Source: Auanema rhodensis (Eukaryota; Animalia; Nematoda). Taken from it: 64,000 nucleotides of DNA. A model generated the notes under the pieces. That model made no database searches. It saw only the letters and a program-made list of their open reading frames with translations, and had not been told where the DNA came from. Position numbers and translations under genes: made by a program. Location of the stretch: contig OZ059898.1 of NCBI GenBank assembly GCA_964057225.1, positions 9,858,001-9,922,000 of the forward strand. Direction: 5' to 3'. Shown piece by piece: positions 3,001 to 63,999 of the stretch (position 1 is the stretch's first letter; the number at the start of each line of letters is the position of its first letter).

Positions 3001-6000
3001 GACTGGTAGTGGCATTGCTTTGAAAAAGTAAAATTTTCCGGCAAAGATGGTAATTATGATTGCTGCAATGATTAGAACAGTAGATCCTATTAATATTAAG
3101 GTTCTTTCAATTGTCCCCATTAAGAATTGTTTTATGCTATTCCAGGCTGTAGTTGTGAACTCAGTTGCTTTCGAAATATAATCGCTGCCCTTTTTCAAAA
3201 GAATAAAGGCTGACGTTATCTTTGGGTCGTTGTGAATCGTATTTAGTACGTGATTTTGTCGTATTGAAGCTAAACTAGCTCCATACGCTATTGCGGTAGT
3301 CATTGAATAGACTCTTGATGAAAGATTAGTATAAAGATGAGCACCTGTAAATTTTAAAGGCGTAACTTTATGTTGGTGAGCTCCATCAAAAAGTGTGATG
3401 GGATTGACTTCCGCAGACCCATTAATGTTCATCCATTCCCCGTTTTTCTCATAAATATCAGTTGGTACGTGTTCGCAGTCGATTTCTTTCCCGTACGAGA
3501 GTAAATCTCTTGATCCCGGTGCTGCGAAATATAATTTGTTGTCTTCGGTTGTTACTGGTGTCTCTAAGTAACATGTTTCATTGATTTTATGAGAGTGGTG
3601 AACGGTTTTAGGCTCTATTGGTAGGCATATATGAACATGAACTATTTCGCTGCCCACGAAACGCGCTGCTATGTCTTCTCTGCCAAGGATTGTTCTCATT
3701 GCTATGGTTGGCTCTATTTGGAGAATTGAACGCCACAATTCGAGATATCTATTTTGTATCTCGCATATGGATTCGTAAGATTCCATAAAATGCTTTTGCA
3801 ATTCTTCCTGTATAAGAGTGGTTGCATATTGTAGATGATCTTGCGCTATTCTCTGAGATATATTCTCTTTATATTGTATCTCGTTGTTTACTTTGGAGCC
3901 TATATAATGTGCTTGCGCTTGTACTGCTTTCGTTTCAATCTCCAAAGGTGGTGATGACGTTCTCTGCTTTCTTTGCGATCTTAAAGACATATCTGTGACC
4001 GTTGCAAACGTAGTAATAGGCTGTTCTTTGTGAACACCATATATTAATGTAACCGTTGTTGGCGCGCGCGTGGATGTTATGGTTTGAGTTGTATCGATTT
4101 CTGGCGTTGTTTGAGGGTCCTGGATTAGCTTTGTTACTTCCGTTGTTGTCGTTATATATTCCGTTTTGTCTGTCAGGCGTCTGGTTGAGTAGGGAGGTGT
4201 TCTTTTATCCTCTAGTAGCGGTAGAAAGGTTTGAATGAGAAGATTTCGTGTATATTTGTTAGGACTTTTTGTTTGTTGATGGGGCCCAACAGGTATACCA
4301 AAATTATTCTCCATATCTCGATATAATTTCTCTATATCTGGCAGGATAATAGTTGGTACAGGCAGATGTCGAAATCTTTCATCGTCTGCTCTGGCCGCTG
4401 TTTGATTGGGTTTTATCGTACGTAGTTTGAGGACTTGGTGATATAGGTCAATTGTTTCTTTAATAATCAGTTGTTCCTCTTCGTTATTAGTTGATAATAC
4501 GGGCCTGATTGGCGGCATGTTTACAAATGCTTTCAAAACTTCTTGTTTTGATGGCACCGACATGTTATTTTGAGCGAAAATGGTCGGTGTAAATGCCAAC
4601 TCGAGCGCTATACTTTCGGTTCGCTCTCGATAACTTCCTTCTTTTGTGAGTATTTTTTCGTCAAATTCTTCTGCTGTTAATCTGTCGCCTATCTGCTCTA
4701 AAAGTTGCAGGGAGGTGAGGTATTTAACGGCTCCTCTTGTGGTAGCTGCCAGTTCTTTTTGGGCGAAGAATTGAAGCATTGCTTCTTCCGGGTCGTAGAA
4801 TTCATATATTTTTAAGAATCTTTCTATTGATCTATCCGAAGTAGTGCTTCGTAGGAAGAATTTGAACTGCTCGGGATGTGCTGAGATCCACTTAACGATA
4901 GAATATGTTGGATCTATTGTCCGTCTGGCTCGAATTATAGGAATTATTTGTGATATCCCAGGGTTACTCATTACTGGACGTAAAAATGGGTATGGGCATA
5001 TGTTCAATGTTAAAGTTTCGTAGTCTTCTTGTTCTTTTATCCAGCTTTCGTCCAATTGCAGTGCGCATTGCGCTATAGCCCTTTTTTGACGCTTAGCTGG
5101 CAACTTTTTATATTCTCTTTCAATTAAGTTGTGTATATTACTGTCATTTGGATATTTGGGAAAGAGTATATAATTGCCCGTGGTTGATTGAAATATAGGT
5201 TGCGAAAAACATGATGTAATCTGTTTTGGAATTTGTTTATTGTCGATAACAAGGGCTGACTGCGTATTGGGAATTAGTATTATGCTGTCTCCAATGATGG
5301 CATCGTATTCACTCATGTCTATGTAGTTGCATCTCTGTTCGTATGATTGGATTTCCCAGATGATCATTGAAGTATTGGATGCGCATTGGCCATGATGTGC
5401 AAGACAGCCTTCCGTATTGAGTAATAGATTTGTCAATATGGTGTCGTCTGGCATCCTGGTCATAACGCCTCTTTCCAAAACCAGTCGTTCTTTTTCTTCG
5501 CATTGTTCGTAATTGAATGAGCGCGCTGGAGAGAATGTAGGTTCGGTTGTCGCGTATGTCAAGCTATCCAATTTAATCAGGTCTTCTGATTTCCATTTAC
5601 GGTCGCGGACAGCCAGTCTACATTCGTTTTCTGTTGTTGGCTCAATTCGAACAATGGAGGAGTTATGATCTCTTAAAAATAGCAAATCCCTGATGCATAT
5701 TTTATGTATTTCTTTTGAACATCTCCATGAATCCCATTCGTGAGCCGTCTGGTTTCTTGTATACAGATGTATGTTTGTGCGGAGGACATGTTTGGTAGGT
5801 GGTATTGTGCATTTCCTCAGGGGTGGGGGTATAAGGAGGGCTCCACCTGTAGCTTTAGTGCACATCTGATAAGCATCAGTTATAGTGATTAGTGATAAGA
5901 TCACTGATAAAGCTACTGCTAGTGTTAAGGGGGATATCAAGGTCAAATTATTGACTCTTGAGCCTCTTCCTCTACCTCTATTATTGTTGTTTCCCCTGAA

Positions 6001-7920
6001 GGGATTATTACCGCGTTGACGGTTATCACTCTCCTGATTACGTGATAAGTTGTTATTTCTTTGATACCAATTTGGATTTGAGAAATTTCTACCGCGATTA
6101 CCAAGATTGCGGTTTCTTGCGAAAGAATTTTGCAGATTTTGTGGTTTCTGATTATTTGATGAATTTTGATAACTTTGATAATTTTGATAATTTTGGTAGT
6201 TTCTATTGTTAAATGATTGATAGCCTCTGCCGATTCCTCGCCTTCCGGTGTCGCGCCTGGGAGGGAATGTTCTATCGATTGCGTTAACCAGTAGCGCCTG
6301 AGGGTCGGCTACTTGGTTAGCAATTGATTCCTCCCATCTGGCATTATCAATTGCCTCGGCAAACGTTTTTGGTTTAGCTCTGATTACCCCCGGGCGTATT
6401 GTGTTTTTGAGACCGCGTAGAAAGGTGGATCTAAGGATATGGTCTTTGTGTGGGTCTGTATGTGAGAAAGCGTTTAAGCTTAGGCTTCGTAAAGTTTGTG
6501 CAAATCCATCTACTGATAGCTCGCCTTGGGTGGAATTCTGTAGCGTTATCAGCGCCGGATCTTGATTATACTCTGGGCATAGCCTAGAGGTAAGTTCTTC
6601 GATGAGAGTATTCCACGAGCCAGATGTCTTGATAGTATCGCTAAGCTGTGTATAAGCTTCTTCAGCTCGTTCGTTTTTGAGAAGTAATGGTAAGATTGTT
6701 AATCTTTCGGGCATAACTAAGCCTAAGGCGTTTGCAAAGGTGTTAAACTTGGCCACGAAGTCTCTAAAGTTGCGACTTCCGTCGTATATAGGGCAATATG
6801 GGGAGCTTAATGCCTGAGCAATGGTAGATTTACCCGCTCCTGGAAGCCGTGATGTTTCAGTCATTTCGGATGAGATGCCCTCAGGGTATGTGATAGGTGA
6901 TATTATCACTTCGCTCCCTGTTGGATCTTGATGAGTGTTTTCTATTGCCTTAGGGTTTCTGCTAGAGGAGCCTATTATAGGTGTAGTTGTTGCGAAACGG
7001 GCTCTTGGAACCTGGATGACTTTACCAGATGCCTGAGGCGATGTTCTATCAGTTGATCGTGAGCTAGGGATCGCACTATCTGATCTGTTAAGATTAGGAT
7101 TATGTGAAGAAAACCGGGGTTTTGCTGTTCCGCCGGGTGTTGTTTTATCGCCTGGGGATAAGTTTAAAATCTTTATCAGTCGATTTGTTAAAGATCTTTT
7201 GTTTTTAAACTTATCAGTTGTTAATGATAAGGGTGAAGCTTCTTGTATGCCTTCGAGGCTGGCTTCTGCTGACGAAGTTTCTGTTGCGCGCTTACTGGGT
7301 GTTTTTGTCTTCCGCTTATTAGGGATATTCTTTTTGATCTTATCAGTGATTTTTGATAAGGTTGAAGGGTTGTCACTAAGTTGGGTGGGTTCTAAAGTTA
7401 GCGAATGTGGTTGATTAATAGGCGTGGAAGGCGCTTGCGGGCTTTGTGTTAACCCGAGGGATGGGGAAGGTGCGTTATCAGTGATAACTGATAAGTTCGA
7501 CGCGTTTGGGCCTGGGGTTACCGGTGAGGCAGATGCGGTTGTCGGCTTTTTCTTTTGAATTTTTCGCAAATTTTTATTAGTATCAACTGAGCGTACCTTG
7601 GGATTTGTAGTTGGAGTTTGAGTGCTGTCGTCGGCTATGATGAAGTCCGGGTCTTCGTCGGTGTCGTCAGAAGGTGAATATGTACCTTCTCGGGGAGTAT
7701 AGAACTTGTCGACTTGCGGCTTCGGCTTCTCGTCTGGTTGGTGCGGTTCTTCTATTTGAACACTGAGAAGTCGGGTGCGGCTTCGGGTACGACTTGCGAC
7801 AGTAGCGTCACTGTTGATATCGGACGGGTAAAGGGCTGGGAAAGCCGATGAGAATCTTTTGGCCACCTTTGTAGGACTTTTGGTTTGGAAAAACCGAGAA
7901 TGGTGAGCTACGTGTGGGAT
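1..7920 (-). CDS. Gag-Env-Pol polyprotein of element A (partial, runs off the window in integrase; protease catalytic DSG deleted)
   Basis: Manual translation; all segments checked share one frame: IPHVAHHSRFFQTKS (7920), METSRLPGAGKST region (ATG 6864), signal peptide ...ITDA|YQMC (5871), RQKR (5080-5091), CEIQNRYLELW, TM ~3031-3105, RT YLDD (~1540-1551), RNase H, IN HHCC and ITDRGSNF at the edge. Its absence from the ORF track is consistent with there being no stop before the window edge. Confidence 0.9.
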   Translation of the reverse strand, partial: MPHVAHHSRFFQTKSPTKVAKRFSSAFPALYPSDINSDATVASRTRSRTRLLSVQIEEPHQPDEKPKPQVDKFYTPREGTYSPSDDTDEDPDFIIADDSTQTPTTNPKVRSVDTNKNLRKIQKKKPTTASASPVTPGPNASNLSVITDNAPSPSLGLTQSPQAPSTPINQPHSLTLEPTQLSDNPSTLSKITDKIKKNIPNKRKTKTPSKRATETSSAEASLEGIQEASPLSLTTDKFKNKRSLTNRLIKILNLSPGDKTTPGGTAKPRFSSHNPNLNRSDSAIPSSRSTDRTSPQASGKVIQVPRARFATTTPIIGSSSRNPKAIENTHQDPTGSEVIISPITYPEGISSEMTETSRLPGAGKSTIAQALSSPYCPIYDGSRNFRDFVAKFNTFANALGLVMPERLTILPLLLKNERAEEAYTQLSDTIKTSGSWNTLIEELTSRLCPEYNQDPALITLQNSTQGELSVDGFAQTLRSLSLNAFSHTDPHKDHILRSTFLRGLKNTIRPGVIRAKPKTFAEAIDNARWEESIANQVADPQALLVNAIDRTFPPRRDTGRRGIGRGYQSFNNRNYQNYQNYQSYQNSSNNQKPQNLQNSFARNRNLGNRGRNFSNPNWYQRNNNLSRNQESDNRQRGNNPFRGNNNNRGRGRGSRVNNLTLISPLTLAVALSVILSLITITDAYQMCTKATGGALLIPPPLRKCTIPPTKHVLRTNIHLYTRNQTAHEWDSWRCSKEIHKICIRDLLFLRDHNSSIVRIEPTTENECRLAVRDRKWKSEDLIKLDSLTYATTEPTFSPARSFNYEQCEEKERLVLERGVMTRMPDDTILTNLLLNTEGCLAHHGQCASNTSMIIWEIQSYEQRCNYIDMSEYDAIIGDSIILIPNTQSALVIDNKQIPKQITSCFSQPIFQSTTGNYILFPKYPNDSNIHNLIEREYKKLPAKRQKRAIAQCALQLDESWIKEQEDYETLTLNICPYPFLRPVMSNPGISQIIPIIRARRTIDPTYSIVKWISAHPEQFKFFLRSTTSDRSIERFLKIYEFYDPEEAMLQFFAQKELAATTRGAVKYLTSLQLLEQIGDRLTAEEFDEKILTKEGSYRERTESIALELAFTPTIFAQNNMSVPSKQEVLKAFVNMPPIRPVLSTNNEEEQLIIKETIDLYHQVLKLRTIKPNQTAARADDERFRHLPVPTIILPDIEKLYRDMENNFGIPVGPHQQTKSPNKYTRNLLIQTFLPLLEDKRTPPYSTRRLTDKTEYITTTTEVTKLIQDPQTTPEIDTTQTITSTRAPTTVTLIYGVHKEQPITTFATVTDMSLRSQRKQRTSSPPLEIETKAVQAQAHYIGSKVNNEIQYKENISQRIAQDHLQYATTLIQEELQKHFMESYESICEIQNRYLELWRSILQIEPTIAMRTILGREDIAARFVGSEIVHVHICLPIEPKTVHHSHKINETCYLETPVTTEDNKLYFAAPGSRDLLSYGKEIDCEHVPTDIYEKNGEWMNINGSAEVNPITLFDGAHQHKVTPLKFTGAHLYTNLSSRVYSMTTAIAYGASLASIRQNHVLNTIHNDPKITSAFILLKKGSDYISKATEFTTTAWNSIKQFLMGTIERTLILIGSTVLIIAAIIITIFAGKFYFFKAMPLPVMHIQRADNEPPGYEETLELVSRPDQPMPENIMKQYYPALVTFIPPGSSVSYVRLSTLKYLNMAQHVKKRRLVAMAANKTTFTLYGKINLNIEIAGYEIEHTFLVSNDCDCPAPALIGMDFMSTLDSENIDVSLKPSKKMLEIGNYALPLIEQDAIKQTAITVNIINLKKRIIQPDEESTIPIKADRPLKSNEVVILGDNGNALASSYPTAFRETSGVYVVFRNNTDKTLAMEANSVIGQATIGEVPSWQTIQEDPMQPYIPPEADWENKLPHFPRNFMNDLNLDKADLNNEDKHELTNIVKNHREAFLNEDRKIGLFKGPIEHTIPLRSDMDMPRSRITRIPLGKQEEVEKQVKEMLEQGIIEPSTSLFNSPAVLVKKKDETYRFVTDFRALNSVTRKQTYVIPSISDIVDMAAGAQFFSNFDLVSGFFQISLRKSDRHLTAFTTTSGTYQYKKMPMGLCGAPHTFQTAVRYLQSKCSCKLFVYLDDLLIISDTRKQHLEDIDELLHAVESLGMKIKLKKCAFAQPEVKFLGLIIGREGIKPDPQKVAAIQEYPAPKNATGVRAFLGMVGFFRKFIKDFASIASPLYDLTKTDTEFAWEKQHQEAVDRLKRSLTQAPVLSPPKSDRLFIIESDGSNIAVGAVLLQPEDPTQPLKHLHPIAFASRKLVKAERNYAPIEIEALGLVYALNQFRTYILGTHTICITDHRPLTSLLTRRDLFGRLAKFQLVIQEYDIEIRYREGQLNKVCDALSRYIGDEANDAKPEKKKKKNAESIRINTIDTPAIKEIQQNTLWIKKTIADIEYRTQKKMVSNDRYCVINGLLYTKPTDKKPHPAIVVPQDHPIKDEIIELFHEDPTIAAHQGINKTKEAILRRFYWTNMQNDIMIYIKNCIKCAQRKKDPHSMTVQPIGQFEIPTKPFERVHMDVMGPFPPSKRNCTYVITIQDAFTKWSTTIAVPQITTEITIDRFLRNFVYIYGPPHRLITDRGSNFVSQKFEEMCTKL

Positions 7921-42566: not shown

Positions 42567-42924
42567 CGTTCCATTCGGATGATCAATGCATTACATTCAT
42601 ATGACGAAGCTGTAGCAGGCGGGTTAGAGTCAGAGAATGCGAGACTGAGAGAAGACGACCCGCCCTTTTCCATATTACAACACTTCAGCTTTGCCTCAGG
42701 GACGATCATGGATGGTTGGTCGTTCTCTCTCTGTTCTCTATTAGTTTAACCTTTACTTAGTTATATGTATCTTATTGTAATCACGTAGATATAATAAACC
42801 AATCTTTCTCGAGTCTTATGTTTATCCTTATGCTCCATGTTTAACCGCTACATCTGGAATACTACCACGCTCATCTTGTAGACTCCATTGGTCTGTAAGA
42901 TCGACGCGGGAGCATAACGGAACG
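42567..42924 (+). repeat. 5' LTR of element B
   Basis: Direct repeat of 53871-54228; termini CGTTCC...GGAACG; AATAAA near 42793. Confidence 0.97.
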
Positions 42925-43380: not shown

Positions 43381-43690
43381 AGTTTGTTTTGCGATCAGGA
43401 CTATTTTATTTTGCGTTACGATTTCGTTCAGACAAATTTTGCTTCTAACATCCTAAATTTATAATCAGTACGCATGAAAAAAAATTACACGGGAAACCTC
43501 ACCAAAAAGGGAGGATTGTTAATTTATAGATCGCTATAGTCCGAAAAATCCTGTTGAAAAATGTTATCTCGAATTTGAATCATGATTAACACAGGTCGTG
43601 TTGGCTAAAGCATATCGGTTTGGATTTTCTCCCCTTACTGAATGTCACCTTCCTCATACCGTTATTGTTGTTCAGAAGCATAAGACTCAC
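43381..43690 (+). promoter_or_regulatory. Conserved structured RNA element in the 5' leader of element B
   Basis: Homologous to 9110-9390 (minus) with covarying stems. Confidence 0.65.
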
Positions 43691-44378: not shown

Positions 44379-47300
44379 ATCCCACACGTTACCAAGCACT
44401 CAAGGTTTTTTCAAACCAAGAGTTCTAGCAAGGTGGCTAAGAGATTCCATTCAGCCGTACCTATAAGTACGCATTTCGATTCCCAAGACTCAGCTCCCTT
44501 TACCAGAAGTCGAGCTCGAGCTCAAGACGTCGCTATATTAGAAGAGGAGCAGAAAGTCGACAAGAAGCCGGATAATTTCCTTATTCCTACTACTGATTCT
44601 GTCTCACCTACTGAACAACTAGGCGACCCGGACTACGTACCTACTATAGAAGAAGAACTATCAATCATTGTGGAGGAACAAACACCGATCACTCCTAAAA
44701 AGGTACGCTCCTCTAATTCTAATAAAAATAAGAAAAATCAAAACATCAGCGACGCTTCTCTCTCTCTCTCACTAACCGAACCAACCGATTCCCCTTTACT
44801 TTCAAAAACTTCTAGCGCGGGTGGGCTTAGTTCTCTTAGAAACATTGTTACTGATCTTTTTAACCTTTCGCCTAAAGATAAAACTTTCAACACCAAGCGC
44901 AAAAGCAGATATTCATCAGTCCCTAACATTAATATCTCACCAATTCAACCACCTGCACCAAATACCAGTATTCATCAAACTTCTACTCCCATCTTAACAA
45001 CAACAGACTCACTTCCTAAGGCACCCAATAGACCTATTCCATCCACGCAAACAACCCCTATTTTGGAGACCCCACCAATAACAGGTAGAACGATCAAAAT
45101 ACCATCTACCCGTACGAATAACATCATGACGGAAGCTGTTTCCTCACTACCTGGGGCAGGGAAAACAACAATCGCGCAAGCCTTACTTTCGCCTTACTGT
45201 CCAACTTACGACGGCAGTCGTAACTTCCGTGATTTTACGGGTAAATTCAACTTGTTTGCTAATGCCATTGGCCTTGTTATCCCTGAAAGGTTAGCACTTC
45301 TTCCTTTGCTTCTCAAAAATGAAGCAGCAGAAGAAGCTTACAGACAAGTTCCTGAACAACTTAAAACAACTGGTTCGTGGAATGATCTGATTAGAGCACT
45401 AACATCGAAGCTCTGCCCTGAATATAACCAAGACCCTGCACTTATTAACCTTCAAAACACCACGCAAGGGGAATTGACAATTGATGCATACGCCCAAGCA
45501 TTAAGAACAATGGCATTGAGTGCATTTGCATCTGATGACCCACATAAAGATCAAATACTGAGATCAACATTCCTCAGAGGACTTAAAAATTCTCTAAAAC
45601 CAGCTGTGATCCGAGCAAAGCCAAAATCCTTCACAGAAGCGATTGAAGCAGCTCGCTGGGAGGAATCGATAGTGAACCAAACAACAGACACGCAATCGAT
45701 GTTGGTCAACGCTGTGAACAAAGCACTAGCACCCTTTGCGCGTAATGATGAGAGACGAGATAGCCAAACATTTAATCGCAATTATCAACGCGATAACCAA
45801 ATGATAAGAAATAATCAAAATTATCAAAATAATCAAAATTATCAAAATTATCAAAAAAATAAAAACTTTTCTAATTTCAATAATAATCGAAACCGTTACG
45901 GTTCTTTCGCTAATAATAATCGCCGTACAAATTATAACGAACAAGATAATAGGCAATCGAGTTCTGATTGGCATCAAAGAAATTATAATTTTCGTCATAA
46001 CAACCAACGAGGTAGATTCAATAACAACAACGGACAAAGAAGAGTTCAATTCAAAAATCCAAGAGACAACTCAAGAGGAAGAGATAGAAGCTCAACAAGA
46101 ATAAACTCTGTCACCCTTTCGCCTTTGACGCTCACAGTTATCATGGCAATAACAACAGCAATATTCTTGCCCTGTGCATCTACATATCAAATCTGTACAA
46201 GAGCAACAGGAGGCGCATTACTTATGCCACCAACAATCAGAAAATGCAGATTAACAGAGAAAAACCATGTGCTACGTACAGAAGTTCATCTGTACACAAG
46301 AAATCACACAGCACACGAATGGGATGCGTGGCGTTGTTCAGAGGAAGTACACAAGTTATGCGTACGAGACCTGCTATTCCTCCGCGATACGAACAGAACA
46401 ATAAATAGAATACAGCCTATAGGAGAGCGCGAATGCAGACAGGCGATCCGCGATCGCAAGTGGAATAACATAGAACTGCAACGCATTGATAGTATCACCC
46501 AAGCAACTCCGGAGCCCTCCTATGACCCAGCGCGCGCGTTCAACCGCGACGCGTGCGAGGAGCGGTCACGTCTAATATTAGAGCGCGGAGTCATGACCCG
46601 TATGCCTGACGATACAATATTGTCAAACTTAATATTAAACACGGAAGGATGCAATGCACATCATGGTAATTGTGAATCAAGTACATCAATAATAATATGG
46701 GACCCACAAACCACTGCTTCACGTTGTAATTACATCGATATGCATACATATGACGCTATCATTAGTCAAGATACTATTTTAATCCCTAGTACACAATCGG
46801 CACTTATTCTTTCAAGCAAACCAACTCCGAAACCTATTTCTTCTTGCTTCAGGCAGCCAGCGTTCCATACGACATCAGGAAATTATATCATTCTTCCTAA
46901 ATTTCCAAACGACAACAATATAACCACCCTTATTGAAAGAGAGTTCAAAAAGCTGCCGTTTAAAAGACCAAAACGTGCAGTCACCGAAGGATGTTCTTTC
47001 CCACTGGATCAAGATCGGATCAACGAAGTTGAAGATTATGAAACAGTATTGCTTCACGTCTGTCCATATACTTTCCTAAGACCATTAATGAGTAATCCCG
47101 GTATTACTTCAATTATTCCTATAATCAAAGGAAGACGTTTAGTAGATCCAACATACTCTCTAAAGGCATGGATAACATCACATAAAAAAAAATTCGAATT
47201 TTTCTTCAGAATTCAAATAAATGAACATTCTGTTCGACATTTTCTCAAGCAATACGATTTCAGTGATAAAAAAGAAGCTCTGCTATATTATATAGCACAA

Positions 47301-50300
47301 AGAGAATTAGCCATTACTACAAAGGCAGCAATATCATACTTAACATCTGAACAGCTTCTCGAACAAATATCAGATCGTTTGACAGTAATCGAATTCGATG
47401 AAATCATAAGGAAGAAAGAAGGTTCATATCGCGAACGAATTGAAAGCATAGCTCTCAATTTAACCAATACACCAGTTATAATTGAAGAAGGACTGACAGT
47501 TCCATCACGACAAGAAGTCCTACAAACGTTCATACAAATGCCACCAATAAGGAAACGTATACTAACTGACGAGGAAGAGAAGAAAAGCGAATTCATTAAG
47601 GCAACGATCAATTTACTAAGAGAACTAAAAACCCTCACAACAGTACGATGGAATAAAACTGCAGCATTTATTGATGACAGAAAATTTATAAAATTGCCAG
47701 CATCACGACAATTCATGCCAAATACAGATAAACTATTTTATGACAGGAAGAATAATTATGGAATACCGATCGGTCCACACCCTAAGCTGATCAAGCCCAG
47801 CAATCTTTCAAAGAAATTATTATTGGAAATATTTTTACCCCTGCTCAATAATGTAAAAACACCTTATACATCGAGTAGGATAACACAAGAACAACTTCAA
47901 ATCTTAATGGCAGAGAAAAATGAAACAAATTTTCGGCAAATCGCAACGCGGACATCCAGCGTCGCGGCAGGCGGCGCGGCTAGCGGCGCGGTTGTGACAC
48001 CAGTCCAACCTTTGATCGAACAGAAGGGAACAATCCAATCAGTTACCACAATACAGCCGCATATAACGAACAATCCTCACACAAATGCAACAACCACCAC
48101 AAGAGCACCATCATGGAGGCAACAGCCATCAACAACGGCGCCTCACACGACCGCTGCGACAACAGCACGCACAACAACATCAACCGCTCGTTCGCCAACA
48201 ACAACAAGAAGCTATGCCATATACAAAGACGCACAGATTCCAAAAATACAAGAGACAACCGAAGCCTCTCCAACATTGATTCGAAAAAACCGAGCTTCCT
48301 CAACACCATCAGTAGAAACCTCAAATTTAGTGGAAGCAAATGCGAGATACATAGCAACGAAAATTGACTCGGTACAAGAGTTTCGTCAAAATATATCGAA
48401 CAAAATAGCCCAAGATCATTTACAGTATGCTACTACAATGATCCAAGAGGAATTGCAGAAACATTTTGAAGAATCATACGAATCGATTTGCGAGATACAA
48501 AATCGGTATCTGGAATTATGGAAATCAATTCTACAAATTGAACCAACAATCGCAATGCGAACAATACTGGGAAGAGAAGATATAGCCGCACGGTTTGTAG
48601 GCAATGAAATTTTGCATATACATGTATGCCCTACAGTGCTAGAGAAAACCATTTATCACAATCACACCGTAAATGGCACATGCTATCTCGAAACCCCAGT
48701 CTGGACACAAGACGGACAGTTACTGTTTGCAGCACCCGGATCCAAGGATCTTTTACCTCATGGTAAAGAAATAAGCTGTGATCACGTACCAAGAGATATC
48801 TGGTCTAGCGAAGGTGAATGGAAAGGAATTAATGGGACTGCAGACGTCAATCTTGTATCAATGTGGGACGGACTTCATCACGAAAAAATAACACCATTAA
48901 AATTCACCGGAGCTCACTTATACACTAATTTATCGTCTCGTGTATACTCAATGACCACAGCCATAGCTTACGGTGCGAGTTTAGCATCGATTCGTCAGAA
49001 TCACGTTCTTCACACAATTCACAATGATCCAAAGATATCAGCTACATTCAGTGTACTAAAGAAAAGTAGCGACTACATATCGAAAGCTCAAGAATTCACC
49101 AAGAGCACATGGAAGTCATTCATCGATACAATTGCAGGAACGATTGAGCGAACACTAATAACGATCGGTGCAATTACATTATTTACCATCATACTCTTTG
49201 TGATAGGTTTCATTGTAAAGATCTATTTCTTCAAACCAGTAGGCATACCAGTTATGCATATTGCACTCAAAGATCACGACAGTGATCTACCAACATACGA
49301 AGAAACTTTGGAATTAGTTAGTCATCCGGATCAACCGATTCCAAGACACATAATGAAACAATACTATCCATCAATGCTCACATTCATACCAATCGCACTA
49401 CCATTAGTTTGCACGATTTCCAAAAAGAAAGATCAAGCACTACCACTTCTATGGATGACTGTTAATGATAGACTGATCCTAACTTTATGGGACTCAGGTT
49501 CGTCCGTCAGTTACATAAGAATATCGACACTACACTACTTAGCTTTGAATGACTTTGTTAAGAAGAATACATTAAGAGCAACAACAGCGAACGGATCAGA
49601 ATTTGTATTCATTGGTACTATCGACTTAACCGTCGAAATAGCCGGTTACGAAATCGACCATACATTCTTCATATCAGACGACAAAGACTGTCCATCGCCA
49701 GCGTTGATTGGATTAGATTTCATGAAAACACTTGACTGTCAAAACATTGGCATGAAACTAAGACCATACAAAAGAACACTGGAAATTGGAAATCATGTAG
49801 TACCTTTGGCTAGCGGAATTAACGGGGATATTAACAGGATATCAAAAACTGTTAATTTGATAACCTTGGAGCCGCGGAGTCTACTTCCTCGACAAGTTTT
49901 TAATTTCCAAGTCCAATTAGAGAACCCAATCGGAGAAGACTTAATCGCTATGATTAAACCAAACGACAGTACTCCTCTCTCACCTCGATACGACACAGCA
50001 TTTCGCGATGTTAACTCCATCAATATCCAATTCCGGAACAATTCTAAAGAATTCATAGAAATACCGGCCGGCACTGTGATTGCAGAAGCCGAAATAGGAT
50101 CTATACCGGACTATGAAATCTTCTCAACAGAACAACAGTACGACTATATTCCACCAGAAGCAGACTGGGAAGGCAAATTACCTCACTTCCCTGGTGATTT
50201 CATGAAAGAACTTGACCTAAAAGAGGCTGATCTTACGCAACGACAAAAAGACGAACTACGAAACATCATTCGTCAACGTAAGAAGGCATTCCTCAATGAA

Positions 50301-53138
50301 GATAAAAAGATAGGATTGTTCAAAGGACCAGTAGAACACAAGATACCACTACGAACGGATATGGATATGCCAAAGCCACGAATTTCACGTATACCTCTCG
50401 GGAGACAAGAAGAGGTAGAAAGACAAGTCCAAGAAATGCTCGAGCAAGGGATAATAGAACGATCGACATCTTTGTTCAACAGCCCTGTCGTTCTCGTTAA
50501 GAAAAAAGACGAAACATTCCGTTTCGTTACGGATTTCCGAGCCTTAAATAACGTTACAAGAAAACAAACATATGTGATTCCTAACATCTCTGATATCATT
50601 GACTTAGCGGCTGGATCACAATACTTTTCTAATTTTGATCTTGTTTCTGGCTTTTTCCAAATACCATTATTGAAGAAGGATAGACCACTCACATCCTTTA
50701 CCACCAATAGTGGGACTTATCAATACAGGAGAATGCCTATGGGATTATGTGGTGCGCCACATACCTTTCAAACAGCCGTGAGATATCTCCAAAGTAAATG
50801 TAAATGCCGACTATTTGTCTATTTGGACGATTTACTAGTCATATCAGACAGCGCAGAACAACACCTCGAAGACATCAAAGAAGTATTACTCGCTGTAGAA
50901 AGACTAGGATTTAAGATTAAACTCAAGAAATGTTCATTTGCAAGACCAGAAGTGAAATTTCTCGGACTCATTGTCGGAAGAGACGGAGTTAAGCCCGATC
51001 AACAGAAAGTTTCCGCCATCCGCGATTACCCTGCTCCTCAAACACCCACAGGAGTAAGAGCATTCTTAGGAATGGTCGGATTCTTTAGAAAATTTATTAA
51101 AGATTTTGCACATATAGCAAGTCCGCTGTATGACCTTACTAAGCTAGACGCAGACTTCAATTGGACTAGCGAATGTCAACGTTCACTAGATAAGCTAAAG
51201 GAACGACTAATCGAAGCACCGGTACTGAAACCACCACGATCAGACCGAACTTTCATCATTGAAAGTGATGGCAGCAACATCGCCATAGGCGCAGTATTAC
51301 TGCAGCCCGAAGATCCAAACGAACCATTCAAGAACTTACATCCAATTGCTTTCGCAAGTAGGAAATTAGTAAAAGCAGAACGTAACTATGCTCCCATAGA
51401 GATAGAAGCCTTAGGCTTAGTTTACGCTCTAGCACAGTTTCGAACATACATACTTGGATCACATTCAATTTGCATCACCGATCATCGCCCATTGACAAGC
51501 TTACTAACTAGAAGAGACCTATTTGGAAGACTAGCAAAGTTCCAATTGGTCATACAGGAATACGATATTGAGATCAAATATCGAGAAGGCAGATTAAACA
51601 AAGTCTGTGACGCACTCTCTAGATACATTGGAGATAAAGCTAACGATCCAAAGACGTCGAACAAGAAACAAAAGACGAATTCGAAAGAGAAAATTGAGAC
51701 ACAACAAGTAAATGTTGTGAAGTTACCAGAATTCAGCTCAATCCAACAAAATACTCCTTGGATCAAGAGAACAATAGCTGAGATTGAATACAGAACGAAG
51801 AAAAATATGATTCAAAATGATCGTTATTGTGTTATAAACAACTTACTCTACACAAAACCAAGCGTCAAAAGACCTCATCCAGCGTTAATATTGCCATCGG
51901 ATAGTGATATAATTAACAAAATCATTGAAGAATTTCATGAAGACCCAACAATCGGGGCGCATCAAGGAATCAACAAAACAAAAGAAGCCATAGTACGAAG
52001 ATTTTCCTGGACTAACATGCAGAACGACATAGCAAAATACGTAAAACAGTGCATCAAATGTGCACAACGAAAGAAAGATCCTCATGCTATGACCGTACAA
52101 CCGATGGGTCAATTTAACATACCATCAAAACCATTTGAGAGAATACATATGGATATCATGGGACCATTCCCAACATCAAAAAGGAACAACAGCTATGTCC
52201 TCACAATACAAGACTCTTTCTCCAAATGGGCTACAACTATCGCCATACCAACAATTGTTAGTGAAGTTGTCATTGATAGATTCCTCAGAAACTTTGTATA
52301 TGTCTATGGACCACCGAATCGCTTAATAACAGACCGCGGTTCCAACTTCCTATCAAGGAAATTTGAAGACATGTGCGAAAAACTCGGTATCAAACATGAA
52401 TCAACACTCCCACATCAGAAGAATTCCAATGGACAAGTAGAAAGACTTCATAGAACGTTAGAAGAAGGACTCACACATTATCTCAACGAAGATGTCACTG
52501 ATTGGGACATGTTTTTGCCAAAAATTACCTTTGCATTGAACACCACAACGCATGCAACCACAGGAATATCACCATACGTTGTACTATTCGGGAAAGAAAG
52601 CCGTTTGAGATTGGATAAAGATTTATACCCCGAAACAACTGAACCAAAGGAAATTTCAAAGGAGATTGAAAATATTGAGAAAATCCGAAGCAAACAGAAA
52701 ACAATCATTCAAGAAAATTTGGAAAAGCATCAAGAATTAGCAAAAAAGAAACATGATGCTCGATTACGCACTCACGAAAGAGATATACAAGAAGGAGACT
52801 GCGTTATGTTAGCTGTGAAAATGCACAAGCCAGGACAAAAGCTTCGGAAAGCTTATGATGGACCATTTGAAGTTATAAATGTGAAGGGAAACATGGTTCA
52901 AATCAAAAACCTTTTCGGAAAGATTCAAGACGTTCACAAGGACAATCTCAAATTATTTAATCGAGAAACAGATGACGGAATCGCACATAAGCCCAGTACA
53001 CGTACAGACAGCTCAGACGATGACAGCGATATCGAAATCATAGAGGTTATCAACGGAAACAACAACGAGGAAGACTCTTATGACGAACCAGAAGACCTTT
53101 CGGATACAAATTGGCTACCATCAAGAAAAAACCATTAA
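44379..53138 (+). CDS. Gag-Env-Pol polyprotein of element B (~2900 aa): Gag, gB-like fusion glycoprotein, aspartic protease, RT, RNase H, integrase
   Basis: ORF-track ORF 44433-53138; the frame is open from 44370 and conserved with A from 44376; first ATG at 45126. Motifs: LWDSGS (49491), YLDD (50820), RNase H ESDGS/TDH/DALSR, IN H-H-C-C (~51936), HMD/TDRG/ER, GPF. Confidence 0.95.
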   Translation: MPHVTKHSRFFQTKSSSKVAKRFHSAVPISTHFDSQDSAPFTRSRARAQDVAILEEEQKVDKKPDNFLIPTTDSVSPTEQLGDPDYVPTIEEELSIIVEEQTPITPKKVRSSNSNKNKKNQNISDASLSLSLTEPTDSPLLSKTSSAGGLSSLRNIVTDLFNLSPKDKTFNTKRKSRYSSVPNINISPIQPPAPNTSIHQTSTPILTTTDSLPKAPNRPIPSTQTTPILETPPITGRTIKIPSTRTNNIMTEAVSSLPGAGKTTIAQALLSPYCPTYDGSRNFRDFTGKFNLFANAIGLVIPERLALLPLLLKNEAAEEAYRQVPEQLKTTGSWNDLIRALTSKLCPEYNQDPALINLQNTTQGELTIDAYAQALRTMALSAFASDDPHKDQILRSTFLRGLKNSLKPAVIRAKPKSFTEAIEAARWEESIVNQTTDTQSMLVNAVNKALAPFARNDERRDSQTFNRNYQRDNQMIRNNQNYQNNQNYQNYQKNKNFSNFNNNRNRYGSFANNNRRTNYNEQDNRQSSSDWHQRNYNFRHNNQRGRFNNNNGQRRVQFKNPRDNSRGRDRSSTRINSVTLSPLTLTVIMAITTAIFLPCASTYQICTRATGGALLMPPTIRKCRLTEKNHVLRTEVHLYTRNHTAHEWDAWRCSEEVHKLCVRDLLFLRDTNRTINRIQPIGERECRQAIRDRKWNNIELQRIDSITQATPEPSYDPARAFNRDACEERSRLILERGVMTRMPDDTILSNLILNTEGCNAHHGNCESSTSIIIWDPQTTASRCNYIDMHTYDAIISQDTILIPSTQSALILSSKPTPKPISSCFRQPAFHTTSGNYIILPKFPNDNNITTLIEREFKKLPFKRPKRAVTEGCSFPLDQDRINEVEDYETVLLHVCPYTFLRPLMSNPGITSIIPIIKGRRLVDPTYSLKAWITSHKKKFEFFFRIQINEHSVRHFLKQYDFSDKKEALLYYIAQRELAITTKAAISYLTSEQLLEQISDRLTVIEFDEIIRKKEGSYRERIESIALNLTNTPVIIEEGLTVPSRQEVLQTFIQMPPIRKRILTDEEEKKSEFIKATINLLRELKTLTTVRWNKTAAFIDDRKFIKLPASRQFMPNTDKLFYDRKNNYGIPIGPHPKLIKPSNLSKKLLLEIFLPLLNNVKTPYTSSRITQEQLQILMAEKNETNFRQIATRTSSVAAGGAASGAVVTPVQPLIEQKGTIQSVTTIQPHITNNPHTNATTTTRAPSWRQQPSTTAPHTTAATTARTTTSTARSPTTTRSYAIYKDAQIPKIQETTEASPTLIRKNRASSTPSVETSNLVEANARYIATKIDSVQEFRQNISNKIAQDHLQYATTMIQEELQKHFEESYESICEIQNRYLELWKSILQIEPTIAMRTILGREDIAARFVGNEILHIHVCPTVLEKTIYHNHTVNGTCYLETPVWTQDGQLLFAAPGSKDLLPHGKEISCDHVPRDIWSSEGEWKGINGTADVNLVSMWDGLHHEKITPLKFTGAHLYTNLSSRVYSMTTAIAYGASLASIRQNHVLHTIHNDPKISATFSVLKKSSDYISKAQEFTKSTWKSFIDTIAGTIERTLITIGAITLFTIILFVIGFIVKIYFFKPVGIPVMHIALKDHDSDLPTYEETLELVSHPDQPIPRHIMKQYYPSMLTFIPIALPLVCTISKKKDQALPLLWMTVNDRLILTLWDSGSSVSYIRISTLHYLALNDFVKKNTLRATTANGSEFVFIGTIDLTVEIAGYEIDHTFFISDDKDCPSPALIGLDFMKTLDCQNIGMKLRPYKRTLEIGNHVVPLASGINGDINRISKTVNLITLEPRSLLPRQVFNFQVQLENPIGEDLIAMIKPNDSTPLSPRYDTAFRDVNSINIQFRNNSKEFIEIPAGTVIAEAEIGSIPDYEIFSTEQQYDYIPPEADWEGKLPHFPGDFMKELDLKEADLTQRQKDELRNIIRQRKKAFLNEDKKIGLFKGPVEHKIPLRTDMDMPKPRISRIPLGRQEEVERQVQEMLEQGIIERSTSLFNSPVVLVKKKDETFRFVTDFRALNNVTRKQTYVIPNISDIIDLAAGSQYFSNFDLVSGFFQIPLLKKDRPLTSFTTNSGTYQYRRMPMGLCGAPHTFQTAVRYLQSKCKCRLFVYLDDLLVISDSAEQHLEDIKEVLLAVERLGFKIKLKKCSFARPEVKFLGLIVGRDGVKPDQQKVSAIRDYPAPQTPTGVRAFLGMVGFFRKFIKDFAHIASPLYDLTKLDADFNWTSECQRSLDKLKERLIEAPVLKPPRSDRTFIIESDGSNIAIGAVLLQPEDPNEPFKNLHPIAFASRKLVKAERNYAPIEIEALGLVYALAQFRTYILGSHSICITDHRPLTSLLTRRDLFGRLAKFQLVIQEYDIEIKYREGRLNKVCDALSRYIGDKANDPKTSNKKQKTNSKEKIETQQVNVVKLPEFSSIQQNTPWIKRTIAEIEYRTKKNMIQNDRYCVINNLLYTKPSVKRPHPALILPSDSDIINKIIEEFHEDPTIGAHQGINKTKEAIVRRFSWTNMQNDIAKYVKQCIKCAQRKKDPHAMTVQPMGQFNIPSKPFERIHMDIMGPFPTSKRNNSYVLTIQDSFSKWATTIAIPTIVSEVVIDRFLRNFVYVYGPPNRLITDRGSNFLSRKFEDMCEKLGIKHESTLPHQKNSNGQVERLHRTLEEGLTHYLNEDVTDWDMFLPKITFALNTTTHATTGISPYVVLFGKESRLRLDKDLYPETTEPKEISKEIENIEKIRSKQKTIIQENLEKHQELAKKKHDARLRTHERDIQEGDCVMLAVKMHKPGQKLRKAYDGPFEVINVKGNMVQIKNLFGKIQDVHKDNLKLFNRETDDGIAHKPSTRTDSSDDDSDIEIIEVINGNNNEEDSYDEPEDLSDTNWLPSRKNH
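46110..49232 (+). other. env: Env region within the polyprotein: signal peptide, Cys-rich class III (herpes gB-like) ectodomain, TM anchor
   Basis: Hydrophobic LTLTVIMAITTAIFLPCAST|YQIC; RPKR at 46965; CEIQNRYLELWKSILQIEPTIAMRTILGREDIAARFVGNEILHIHVC at 48489; many N-x-S/T sequons; TM 49152-49232. Confidence 0.85.
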
Positions 53139-53870: not shown

Positions 53871-54228
53871 CGTTCCATTCGGATGATCAATGCATTACAT
53901 TCATATGACGAAGCTGTAGCAGGCGGGTTAGAGTCAGAGAATGCGAGACTGAGAGAAGACGACCCGCCCTTTTCCATATTACAACACTTCAGCTTTGCCT
54001 CAGGGACGATCATGGATGGTTGGTCGTTCTCTCTCTGTTCTCTATTAGTTTAACCTTTACTTAGTTATATGTATCTTATTGTAATCACGTAGATATAATA
54101 AACCAATCTTTCTCGAGTCTTATGTTTATCCTTATGCTCCATGTTTAACCGCTACATCTGGAATACTACCACGCTCATCTTGTAGACTCCATTGGTCTGT
54201 AAGATCGACGCGGGAGCATAACGGAACG
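53871..54228 (+). repeat. 3' LTR of element B
   Basis: Direct repeat of 42567-42924. Confidence 0.97.
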
Positions 54229-60312: not shown

Positions 60313-63300
60313 TTAAATGGTTGTTGTTGCTCCAATCACTGTCGAAGGTCGTTTCTTTCGTACGACCGGTGTTTTTGGTGAGTTGAAATGAGCATCAGGT
60401 ATCTGAGAGCGTGTGAGCCTATTTTTAGACTCTAAGGTGGGTATCACGCTGTTGTACCTTATTGGTACGTGGAATGGTTTTGGAGCGGTTATAGGATTTT
60501 TGTCTTCTATTCCAAGTGCCAACTTGAGGGCTGAGCTCCATCTTTTGGTTGTGGGTATCTCTTTACGTCTTTCTTCATAGAGCTCTTGCCTTGTTTCTTC
60601 TCCAATTTTATCGACAAGTTGTTGAAATAAGTTGTTTTCGTCCTTGTCCGTAGCTAACTTGTCTGCCGTATTCGGTCCGGTTTCTGGTTGATAATTGTCC
60701 TGTTGTGTTTCCCGCGTAATTTCCTGTGGTGCTATTGTTTCTTGTGGTGTTATTGAAGGTCGGCTTTGTTCGTAGAATTCGTCCTCGTTGTCGCTTTCTG
60801 AATCAGAGATTGATGTTGCGGTGGGCGTGCTATTTTTAGCGCGCGTATTTTCCGTATCCTGCTGTGAGCCGTCGCTATAAATGGCAGGTGCGGAGTCGTT
60901 TCTGTTGTGCTCGCTTTCTTCGACGTTGTTATCGTCGGGTGGAAAGTATCTTATATTATTCTTGTGAGCTATAATCGTATTCCCTTCGCTATCTGCTAAT
61001 ATTACGTTATTTCCTTTTATTTCCTTGATTATATATGGTCCATCGCTTGTTGTTTGTAATTTATTTGCTGGCTTTGCTCGCTTGACGAGTGCTCTATTTT
61101 CCACGAAGATCTCTCTTTCCTGCGTCCTGTGATTTTCGTCGTATTTCTTCTTCATTCTTTCATTATTCAACTCTATCCTTTCATGAATCTTCTCGTGTAA
61201 GTCCGGGGCGTTCTTGATTGTGGCTCCTGGAGTTTCTAAGTCCTTATCTATTGGTAACCGAGCTGTTTGTCCAAACAGACAGTCGTAGGGTGGTGTGCGA
61301 GTAGTAGCGTTTGGTAGTCGATTCATCGTAAAAACAATTTTTGGTAGAATAATATCCCAATTGTCTTGGTCGTCATTAACGTAGGAAGTTAATGCTTCTT
61401 CCAGTGTTCTGTGTAGCCGTTCCACTTGACCATTTGCGTTTTTGTAGTATGGCATAGTTGTGTGATGTTCCGATCCAAGATTATCGCACATGCTTTTGAA
61501 TTCGTGTGAGACAAAGTTTGATCCATTGTCTGTGATGATTTTCTTTGGGGGTCCGAAGACATAGAATAAGTGTGTCATAATAGCTGATACTATTTCTTCT
61601 GATGTCTGACGAATTAATGGTATCGCTATAATCCATTTGGAAAATGCGTCCTGTATAGATAAAATGTATCTATTATCCTTTGCAGTTCTAGGTAATGGTC
61701 CTAGTATGTCCATGTGAACTCGTTCCCATGGATGTGTCACTGTTGGGAAGTTTCTCATTGGTTCAACTGTGGCTTCATGTGGGTTATTTTTCCTCTTTGC
61801 ACAGTCGAGACATCTGTTCACATATCTTGTGATATCATCCTGTATTCCTGTCCAAGTGTACCGTCGCAAAATGGAGTCTTGAGTCTTATTGATTCCAAGA
61901 TGTGCTCCGAGAATTGGGTCTTTATGAAATTTTTCTATAATTGGTATTGTGATTGCTGGATCGTTTGGTAGAATGGCTCGCGGAGTTTGTAAAGCTGTTT
62001 TGGGTTTTGCATACAGAGCGTCGTTCACAACGATATATCGATCCATTAGTTGCCTTCCTGCTGTTTTGTTCCGAATCTTTTCTTTTGTTTCCATGATCCA
62101 TTCTGTATTGCCTTGAATGGTCCGAAGGTCCGTAATAGTTGAAATAGTCGAGATTTTGTGTGTAGGAGTTTCTTTTGGTTTCTTCTTTCTTTCCTTGGCT
62201 TCGTTGACTTCGTCTTCAAAATATCGTGAAAGTGCATCACATACGCTGTTAAGACGTCCTGGGCGATACACTATCTCGATGTCGTATTCTTGTAATACGA
62301 TTTGAAATTTTGCTAGCCTGCCAATGAGATCTTTTCTTGTCATGAGGCTAGTAAGAGGCCTGTGATCGGTAATGATTCTTATTGGTGTGCCTAGTATGTA
62401 AGTCCGAAATTGATGTACTGCGAAAGTGAGTGCTAAGGCTTCGATTTCAATTGGCGGGTAATTTCGTTCGGCTTTGTTCAGTTTTCGGCTGGCAAATGCA
62501 ATTGGGTGAAGTGGTTCCTTGTCGTCTTTAGCCTGTAATAGTACTGCGCCAACTGCAATTATACTTCCATCGCTTTCAATGACGTAAGGTCGTTTTGCTA
62601 TAGGTGCTTGTAGTACAGGAGCTTGACAGAGTATCTGTTTAAGTTGTTGAAATGCTTGTTCTTCTGCATCTCCCCATTTGAAAGCTGTATCCTTTTTCGT
62701 GAGCTCATAAAGTGGTGACGCAATGCCTGCGGCATTTCTAATAAATCTGCGAAAGTAGTTCACAACTCCCATAAATGCTCGAACTCCTGTTATTGATTTC
62801 GGTCTTGGATAATCTCGGATTGCTTTTACTTTCTGAGGGTCTGGTTTTATTCCTTCGTGTCCAACAATGAATCCTAGGAATTTGACTTCTTGTTGTCCAA
62901 AGGTACATTTCTTAAGCTTGATTTTTAATCCTAGCTCTGCTGATGCGTTCAGTACTTCGTCGATATCTTGTAAATGTTTCGTCGTTGATTCCGATATGAG
63001 AAGTAGATCGTCGAGATAGACGAAGAGCTTGCATCGTACGTGTTGTTGTAAATATCGTACAGCATTTTGGAATGTGTGTGGAGCTCCGCAGAGTCCCATC
63101 GGCATTCTGCAGTATTGATAAGTTCCGCTCGTAGTAGTGAATGCGGTGAGGTGTCTATCTTCTGATCTAAGAGGGATTTGAAAGAATCCAGATACTAGAT
63201 CAAAGTTACTGAAGATACGCGCTCCGGCTGCTAGGTCCAAGATGTCTTGAATGTTAGATATAACGTAGATTTGTTTTTGCGTTATTGCGTTGAGTGCTCG

Positions 63301-63999
63301 AAAATCAGTCACAAATCTGTACGTTTTATCCTTTTTCTTGACCAATATTACGGGACTGGTAGTCATAGAAAAAGATGGCTCAATTATTCCTTGTTCTAAC
63401 ATTTCCTCCACTTGTTTTTCTACTTCTTCTTGTTGTGATAGAGGTATTCTGTACGTGATCTTGAAAGATGGAACTTTTCCTTCGATGATCGGGATGCTAT
63501 GTTCCACTGGTCCTTTGAAAAGTCCAATATTGCGATCCTCGTTTAAGAAAGCTTCCTTGTTTCTGAGCACTATTTTCTTTAACTGTTGTCTCTCTAGCTG
63601 AGTAAAGATGGTGTTTGTTACATCGAGGTCTTTTATAAAGTCCTCTGGGAAGTATGGTAGTTGATCTTCCCATCTTGCTTCTGGTGGCACATATTGTCCT
63701 TTTTGCTCCTCCGTGTTTTTCGGGATAGCGTAAGCTGTTCCAATGCCTTGATTTGTCTGTACTACAATTGTGTCTGGAGAGATATTTGTAGCAAATATCT
63801 GAACTCCATATCCCGTTGGGGTGAAAGTAGTAGGGGCGAAACTCATTTTTCCTGTCCGCTGTGAGCTTCTAATGAAAGCTTGTTCGTAAGAGGCGGGATC
63901 GTCTACTTCCAATGTAAGCGATCTGGTTTCTCCTGGGTAGAACTGTTTGGTTTCCAGGCTTACGACGTGTGCTATCGTGTGGTTCTCAGTCCATGGCGC
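60313..63999 (-). CDS. pol: Pol of element C (partial): RT, RNase H and integrase with a long C-terminal tail
   Basis: ORF track 1199 aa; the frame stays open to the window edge. Motifs YLDD, ESDGS, HHCC, HMD/TDNG/ER, GPY. Confidence 0.95.
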   Translation of the reverse strand, partial: APWTENHTIAHVVSLETKQFYPGETRSLTLEVDDPASYEQAFIRSSQRTGKMSFAPTTFTPTGYGVQIFATNISPDTIVVQTNQGIGTAYAIPKNTEEQKGQYVPPEARWEDQLPYFPEDFIKDLDVTNTIFTQLERQQLKKIVLRNKEAFLNEDRNIGLFKGPVEHSIPIIEGKVPSFKITYRIPLSQQEEVEKQVEEMLEQGIIEPSFSMTTSPVILVKKKDKTYRFVTDFRALNAITQKQIYVISNIQDILDLAAGARIFSNFDLVSGFFQIPLRSEDRHLTAFTTTSGTYQYCRMPMGLCGAPHTFQNAVRYLQQHVRCKLFVYLDDLLLISESTTKHLQDIDEVLNASAELGLKIKLKKCTFGQQEVKFLGFIVGHEGIKPDPQKVKAIRDYPRPKSITGVRAFMGVVNYFRRFIRNAAGIASPLYELTKKDTAFKWGDAEEQAFQQLKQILCQAPVLQAPIAKRPYVIESDGSIIAVGAVLLQAKDDKEPLHPIAFASRKLNKAERNYPPIEIEALALTFAVHQFRTYILGTPIRIITDHRPLTSLMTRKDLIGRLAKFQIVLQEYDIEIVYRPGRLNSVCDALSRYFEDEVNEAKERKKKPKETPTHKISTISTITDLRTIQGNTEWIMETKEKIRNKTAGRQLMDRYIVVNDALYAKPKTALQTPRAILPNDPAITIPIIEKFHKDPILGAHLGINKTQDSILRRYTWTGIQDDITRYVNRCLDCAKRKNNPHEATVEPMRNFPTVTHPWERVHMDILGPLPRTAKDNRYILSIQDAFSKWIIAIPLIRQTSEEIVSAIMTHLFYVFGPPKKIITDNGSNFVSHEFKSMCDNLGSEHHTTMPYYKNANGQVERLHRTLEEALTSYVNDDQDNWDIILPKIVFTMNRLPNATTRTPPYDCLFGQTARLPIDKDLETPGATIKNAPDLHEKIHERIELNNERMKKKYDENHRTQEREIFVENRALVKRAKPANKLQTTSDGPYIIKEIKGNNVILADSEGNTIIAHKNNIRYFPPDDNNVEESEHNRNDSAPAIYSDGSQQDTENTRAKNSTPTATSISDSESDNEDEFYEQSRPSITPQETIAPQEITRETQQDNYQPETGPNTADKLATDKDENNLFQQLVDKIGEETRQELYEERRKEIPTTKRWSSALKLALGIEDKNPITAPKPFHVPIRYNSVIPTLESKNRLTRSQIPDAHFNSPKTPVVRKKRPSTVIGATTTI

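Follow-up and report, generated by a model that had tools for sequence, protein, structure and literature searches.

A predicted helical accessory module in the gB-type Env of a nematode endogenous retrovirus, and the two basic sites that flank it

The DNA analysed here (the window) is a stretch of 64,000 nucleotides from the nematode Auanema rhodensis (GenBank assembly GCA_964057225.1, contig OZ059898.1, positions 9,858,001 to 9,922,000 of the forward strand), which contains a ~230-bp satellite array and, amid it, three copies (A, B and C) of a single type of retroelement. Copy B encodes Gag, Env and Pol in a single open reading frame (ORF), where Pfam recognises, in this order, Retrotrans_gag, Monjiviricetes_fusion (PF24664), Glycoprotein_B (PF00606, below its cut-off), gag-asp_proteas, RVT_1, RT_RNaseH and rve. 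At the protein level copies A and B are 57% identical over 2606 aligned residues, and copy C is 51.5% identical to B over 1060 amino acids (aa). The gene order, the long terminal repeats (LTRs) and the transfer RNA (tRNA) primer site all fit a nematode-type GAG-ENV-POL endogenous retrovirus (Ty3/gypsy with a glycoprotein B (gB)-type ENV), and by these sequence features the element is one. What is new in this otherwise known kind of Env is a helical accessory domain of about 310 residues, a fold orphan, which lies together with a Thr/Pro-rich linker between two basic motifs (sites 1 and 2; Table 1).

Table 1 Features of the retroelement copies in the window, and contexts of the two sites in the related Env fragments P0004, P0006 and P0007. 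The arrow marks the predicted cut; RT, reverse transcriptase.
Feature	Positions in the window	Strand	Extent	Remarks
Copy B	44433..53138	+	2901 aa	single unbroken ORF, gag-env-protease-RT-RNaseH-integrase (ORF list, Pfam)
5' LTR of copy B	42567..42924	+	358 bp	100% identical to 53871-54228
3' LTR of copy B	53871..54228	+	358 bp	100% identical to the 5' LTR
Internal hydrophobic segment of B	46110..46181	+	aa 560-583	hydropathy peak 1.9
Env N-terminal half of B	46182..46964	+	aa 584-844	Cys-rich; 63% identity A vs B, 10 common Cys
Site 1 of B, RPKR	46965..46976	+	aa 845-848	context KRPKR↓AV; motif kept in 4/4 spanning lineages
Insert helical domain of B	46977..47927	+	aa 849-1165, 317 aa	AlphaFold model; seven Auanema relatives
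Thr/Pro-rich mucin-like linker of B	47928..48281	+	aa 1166-1283, 118 aa	S+T+P 41%, no Cys
Site 2 of B, RKNR	48282..48293	+	aa 1284-1287	context LIRKNR↓ASS; minimal R-x-x-R, aligned to RKQR of A
Env C-terminal ectodomain of B	48294..49157	+	aa 1288-1575	gB-type central helix and crown; Pfam and PDB sequence matches
Env membrane anchor of B	49158..49214	+	aa 1576-1594	hydropathy peak 2.66
Copy A	1..7866	-	2622 aa	single ORF, extending past the window edge
Site 1 of A, RQKR	5080..5091	-	aa 926-929	context KRQKR↓AI; aligned to RPKR
Insert helical domain of A	4159..5079	-	aa 930-1236	alignment to B
Thr/Pro-rich linker of A	3973..4158	-	aa 1237-1298, 62 aa	S+T+P 42%, no Cys
Site 2 of A, RKQR	3961..3972	-	aa 1299-1302	context QRKQR↓TS; overlapping RSQR at 1296; aligned to RKNR
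Env C-terminal ectodomain of A	3100..3960	-		PF24664 E 3.4e-17 at aa 1278-1485
Copy C	60889..63972	-		pol part only inside the window; env beyond the window end
Env fragment P0004				site 1 KRIKR↓SM; fragment ends before site 2
Env fragment P0007				site 1 QRKKR↓SI; at site 2 no basic motif, segment of ~34 columns absent
Env fragment P0006				fragment begins after site 1; at the place of site 2 LVERR↓SV (Arg at P1, none at P4)

Env layout and the insert ahead of the central helix

Just two hydrophobic segments occur around Env within the single polyprotein, one on each side of the ectodomain (the anchor of copy A has its hydropathy peak at aa 1590-1608). The first of them (aa 560-583 of B) would act as a signal or first membrane span ahead of the ectodomain, an arrangement also met in the text of Chary and Hayashi (eLife 2026; PMC13524379), according to which some gB-type ENV have their ectodomain between two membrane spans. 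The Cys-rich N-terminal half of Env presumably carries the fusion and pleckstrin homology (PH)-like domains of a class III fusogen.

The C-terminal half of the ectodomain, 66% identical between A and B, is the part in which the kinship of this Env can be read. PF24664 is matched in B with an E-value of 1.4e-12 at aa 1330-1601 (profile positions 315-578 of 653), and the bit scores of B (46.9), A (62.1) and P0007 (36.4) all exceed the curated cut-off of 27; the three matches begin at profile position ~253-315 of 653, right after the insert. PF00606 was matched below its curated cut-off of 43 (34.9 bits and E 1.4e-8 in B, 36.7 bits in A), and the Env is therefore classed as gB-like and kept apart from herpesvirus gB proper, PF24664 being its nearer match by Pfam score. 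A phmmer search of the B ectodomain against PDB sequences returned gB chains in 43 of 48 rows (best E 0.0024), all rows aligning at ectodomain residues ~746-851 (polyprotein aa 1315-1420), and on the gB side the alignment covers the central helix and the beginning of the crown, e.g. 499-586 in full-length herpes simplex virus 1 (HSV-1) numbering. The Cys of ESIC and VCP in Env align to the gB Cys of SWC and NCP. When the family profile was run against the PDB, 38 of the 39 rows were gB and fell without exception on profile positions 413-509, which lie downstream of the insert (human cytomegalovirus (HCMV) gB, E 4.9e-4); the remaining row, Mediator subunit 9 at positions 128-221 in the insert part (E 0.16), is noise.

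The structural comparisons point the same way. The model of the whole ectodomain is poor (mean predicted local distance difference test score (pLDDT) 46.4; 22-45 in the N-terminal half), and its helix and crown part finds gB weakly but coherently, by Foldseek from E 0.029 and by VIA at residues ~742-882 (gB chains at Z 3.8-5.6 over 73-130 residues). The long helix of this model begins ~7 residues after site 2. Since the gB matches all start downstream of the insert, the insert is placed in the loop that connects the N-terminal half to the central helix, i.e. just before the gB core helix, where an initial annotation of this DNA had also put it.

Counted strictly, 435 residues separate the two sites in B and 369 do so in A, with no stop in either; the figures of 439 and 373 aa in the initial annotation include site 1, and the large open stretch itself stands. 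In the first part of the insert A and B share 49% identity, and the motifs CPY.FLRP.MSNPGI, EGSYRER and N.GIP.GPH are found in both copies alike. The AlphaFold model of the 317-aa part of B, built on a 9-row alignment, is all-helical with 17 helices (mean pLDDT 73.7, predicted template modelling score 0.71); the initial annotation had described this part as conserved and globular-looking. Near its start this part has two Cys in both A and B, and none in P0004 and P0007; the Cys being either both present or both absent, an internal pair would fit, with no obligatory disulfide to the core.

The remainder of the insert is the Thr/Pro-rich linker, with a Ser, Thr and Pro share of 41-42% vs 20-23% in the neighbouring parts. 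It is the part of Env least conserved between A and B (17% identity, 58 gap columns), and comparable Ser/Thr/Pro-rich stretches are present in P0006 and P0007. By composition the linker is mucin-like (Ser/Thr/Pro-rich, of variable length and Cys-free), much as the initial annotation had described it.

Searches for a known counterpart of the helical part were negative at every level tried: no Pfam family reached its cut-off in either copy or in the 9 family rows; a family-profile search of the PDB found no sequence relative; Foldseek gave no match of the model to the PDB (best E 0.23, template modelling score about 0.1) and none to the viral BFVD (best E 0.26); VIA-align against 48,161 PDB representatives gave a best Z of 3.7 and none at or above 5; the ESM Atlas offered no lead (best score 0.81, bacterial hypothetical clusters); and the polyprotein outside the insert contained no internal duplicate of it (blastp best E 0.58).

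Relatives were found in Auanema itself. HMMER over 1.84 billion representative proteins returned seven relatives of the insert (E 6.2e-17 to 3.0e-5, 22-39% identity), all of them partial Env proteins from Auanema sp. JU1783. Two of the seven reach the gB-type helix, P0006 and P0007, of which the latter scores above the PF24664 cut-off; the order helical domain, Ser/Thr/Pro-rich linker, central helix is shared. As seven relatives carry the module, with two of them running on into the gB-type helix, these sequences make it a family trait of an Env lineage found in at least two host sources. Word-indexed protein searches with the insert, with the polyprotein region 849-1165 and with the family alignment returned no further relatives, and family-alignment scans of metagenome and viral contigs gave pattern matches and no relative. 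Eleven sequencing runs from three studies, with no RNA run among those listed, contain the stretch. The contigs of four runs gave a near-identical copy of B and more diverged related copies that cover only the conserved pieces 46803-46979, 47112-47176, 47720-47839 and 48347-48496, which do not reach site 2.

The comparison of A with B also indicates constraint. The proportion of nonsynonymous differences (pN) is 0.325 in the helical part and 0.324 in the protease region, the Env core being lower (0.21-0.24) and the linker higher (0.47); synonymous sites are saturated (proportion of synonymous differences 0.79-0.87, with 0.79 in the insert). The open frame, a pN like that of the protease region and the seven Env fragments that carry it mark the insert, on the evidence of sequence comparison, as a real domain under constraint.

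Two basic sites of unequal standing

The four R-x-x-R motifs reported in A and B by the initial annotation are all present at its positions and in its frames, and their conservation differs between the two ends of the insert. Site 1 is covered by four lineages (B, A, P0004 and P0007), all of which read K/Q-R-x-K-R followed by A or S. Of the four that cover site 2, two (B and A) have R-x-x-R; conservation of this second motif across the family, on which the annotated double cleavage depended, did not hold up, there being VERR in P0006 and nothing comparable in P0007.

Chance expectation separates the sites as well. The ectodomain contains four R-x-x-R motifs in B against 4.17 expected from shuffling, and four in A against 2.94, which is chance level; the stricter R-x-[KR]-R is uncommon, with one observed vs 0.5 expected in B and two vs 0.32 in A. 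Since R-x-x-R occurs at chance frequency, the case for site 2 comes down to the fact that its position aligns between two related copies. The stricter motif and its conservation in 4/4 lineages give site 1 a better footing. As site 2 is not conserved, a double cleavage that frees the insert cannot be the mechanism of the whole family, and release of the insert as a free protein is possible at most as a trait of copies A and B. The release proposed initially thus keeps its predicted first cut, with site 1 conserved in 4/4, and the second cut is narrowed to a motif of the A/B clade (2/4).

A tethered head or a released protein

We read the insert, with a confidence a little above even, as a lineage-specific accessory module (the all-helical domain of ~310 residues plus the variable Thr/Pro-rich linker) that stays on the spike as a tethered, outward-facing head and is not released cargo. 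The polyprotein would thread the membrane with Gag and Pol in the cytosol and everything between the two hydrophobic segments luminal, and a furin-like convertase would, to judge from the motif, cut after the conserved K-R-x-K-R of site 1. The two disulfides with which gB ties its halves together would keep the N- and C-terminal halves of this fusogen connected, the C-terminal partner Cys being aligned, and the helical module would hang as an exposed head from the N-terminus of the central-helix fragment on a linker that is probably O-glycosylated. There it might bind a receptor, shield the spike or control the helix. In A and B a second, weaker cut at the R-K-x-R of the linker end may also detach the module; as its two Cys are internal to it, only non-covalent contacts would then hold it.

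Such a module would matter for the biology of these elements. Herpesvirus gB-type fusogens depend on separate proteins for receptor binding and triggering. The retroelements with a gB-type Env encode no such partner proteins. A conserved folded module, at the one cleavage-tolerant loop of the fusogen and beside a conserved convertase site, readily suggests itself as the source of the missing function, be it binding or regulation, and is a concrete object for expression, mapping and structure solution.

Several points weigh against the tethered head. The role of head or receptor binder, drawn from position and analogy, is the step that we hold least firmly. The absence of a known fold is provisional, given the 9-row alignment and the moderate confidence of the model. 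The class III assignment is taken from the C-terminal half of Env, the N-terminal half being modelled at a pLDDT of 22-45. The site counts cover few lineages, four per site from two host sources. Lastly, R-K-x-R-x-S-S-x-P is kept in A and B as an island of identity within a region only 17% identical, and this may argue for a functional site 2 in these copies and for a release that is real within the clade.

This last point leads to the best-placed alternative, which is limited to the A/B clade and which we consider possible, if unlikely: both sites would be cut by a furin-like convertase, and the helical domain with its mucin-like tail would be freed as a secreted glycoprotein or as a detachable, non-covalent receptor-binding cap. 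A and B both have the two motifs, in matching places of the alignment; the R-K-x-R-x-S-S-x-P island is kept locally, and P0006 retains an Arg at the aligned P1 as a dibasic RR. The only two Cys of the insert are internal to it and come or go together (A and B against P0004 and P0007), while the fusogen halves keep the Cys that link them in gB, so that the middle piece alone would be unlinked. On the other side, site 2 is a minimal R-x-x-R without a basic P2, a motif occurring at chance frequency; it is missing in two of four lineages, one of which lacks the entire segment; and it stands amid Ser and Thr that are possibly O-glycosylated. O-glycans can block convertases. The form this would take in the A/B clade, and we think it somewhat more doubtful still, is a class III fusogen turned into a three-piece spike, with a nested helical glycoprotein, a protein within a protein, released as a secreted factor or as a detachable receptor-binding cap resembling a retroviral surface subunit (SU-like). 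If true, the double cut would excise an unusually large piece for any viral fusion protein.

It is improbable, to our judgement, that the insert serves as an intramolecular chaperone or pre-fusion clamp, loosened or removed by a priming cut at site 1 and with no role in binding or secretion. Two things would suit a clamp: the insert directly abuts the N-terminal end of the helix rearranging in class III fusion, and the adjoining site 1 is conserved. Against this, the data do not tell clamp and head domain apart, the long, variable linker speaks more for a module on a loose tether, and class III fusogens are not known to need proteolytic priming.

We give rather little credence to the simpler view that neither site is used, with the basic motifs incidental and the insert a tolerated enlargement of what in other gB proteins is a disordered loop. 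The chance-level frequency of R-x-x-R agrees with it, as does the statement in the text of PMC13524379 that the furin site of gB-type ENV is not always conserved. Against it, K/Q-R-x-K-R↓[AS]-[VIM] is kept in all four lineages, which are only 22-39% identical in the insert, and the helical part is constrained as much as the protease region.

That the insert is an ordinary gB domain (II or III) diverged past recognition is very hard to credit, the insert model being all-helical where gB domains I, II and IV are mostly beta, no gB chain matching the insert range by sequence profile, Foldseek or VIA, and the N-terminal half of 261-274 aa together with the C-terminal half already accounting for the PF24664 profile.

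The retroelement copies and known systems

The ~230-bp satellite array makes up most of the window (10135-42566 and 54228-58662), and each of the three copies either interrupts this array or adjoins it. Copy B (42567-54228) appears complete and young, with identical LTRs, a tRNA-Gln primer-binding sequence and the unbroken ORF. Directly after its 5' LTR stands TGGAGGTTCCAC, a primer-binding-site-like 12-mer at 42925-42936, which is the reverse complement of the tRNA-Gln 3' end that supplement file 2 of PMC13524379 gives for two Caenorhabditis elements.

Copy A lacks, near aa 1665, ~35 residues that hold the protease DSG motif in B, and its frame stays open; an aspartyl protease is found by Pfam in B and not in A. 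Both ORFs (from 44433 on the + strand and from 7866 on the - strand) open with a conserved GTG (MAKRF...) and no ATG, with the frame open further upstream, and the bases directly before the ORF starts resemble a splice acceptor (ttctag in B). The true start of the polyprotein may be non-AUG or may lie within a spliced upstream exon. The C-terminal part of Gag in B (aa 450-555, ~45780-46100 on the + strand) is Asn/Gln/Arg-rich, of low complexity and without a Cys-His zinc knuckle.

A continuous gag-env-pro-pol ORF in nematodes was reportedly described by Sacco et al. in 2022 (J Gen Virol). Chary and Hayashi (PMC13524379) place GAG-ENV-POL elements with a gB-type ENV in Nematoda, Bryozoa and Platyhelminthes, crediting them in the text to Sacco et al. 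2022. The present element resembles the nematode Ty3/gypsy members described there in the gag-env-pol order, in a class III Env between Gag and Pol, in the LTRs, in the Ty3/gypsy-type RT, RNase H and integrase, and in the 12-nt tRNA-Gln primer sequence that copy B has in common with the two Caenorhabditis elements. It differs in the insert: the main text of PMC13524379 gives five ENV domains (I-V) and does not describe a helical module of ~310 aa with a linker in the loop between domains II and III, and the terms 'mucin', 'additional domain', 'extra domain', 'disordered' and 'unstructured' are all absent from that main text, figures lying outside this scope. Short peptide motifs of the present Env do not occur in the domain I-II alignment table of the same source, a weak negative since the sequences there are gapped. 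No comparable insert was found in the searchable full-text literature, which did not extend to Sacco et al. 2022 or to the supplementary figures of PMC13524379, both of which may bear on the point.

Among viral proteins, the Monjiviricetes (chu-/nyami-like) fusion glycoprotein of PF24664 is the best family match of the C-terminal half of Env; its profile match starts after the insert, no part of which is matched. Respiratory syncytial virus (RSV) F likewise has two convertase motifs around an internal piece of a fusion protein, and the insert had initially been likened to a much larger version of its p27. RSV F is a class I protein, p27 is a glycosylated piece of 27 aa, and both furin sites are conserved and needed for activation. 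The Env described here is class III, the piece is 370-440 aa long and conservation of the second site stops at A and B, so that the likeness fails at the two conserved flanking sites that define p27.

A parallel in architecture is the filovirus glycoprotein (GP), where a folded head is followed by a Ser/Thr/Pro-rich mucin-like stretch, a basic site and the helical fusion core. Filovirus GP is a class I fusogen with the head preceding the whole fusion subunit and the mucin-like domain directly upstream of the furin site, whereas the module of Env is nested in a class III fusogen, with the fusion domain upstream of it. Herpesvirus gB provides the parallel in position: it has one furin site in a short disordered loop at the place matching the insert, and the furin loops of HCMV, varicella-zoster virus (VZV) and Epstein-Barr virus (EBV) share with this Env a location directly before the central helix, a basic convertase motif and the aligned Cys that link the halves. 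The difference is one of content, since the loop here holds 369-435 residues with a folded domain, and two sites in A and B, so that the 'furin loop' of a class III fusogen can accommodate an entire domain.

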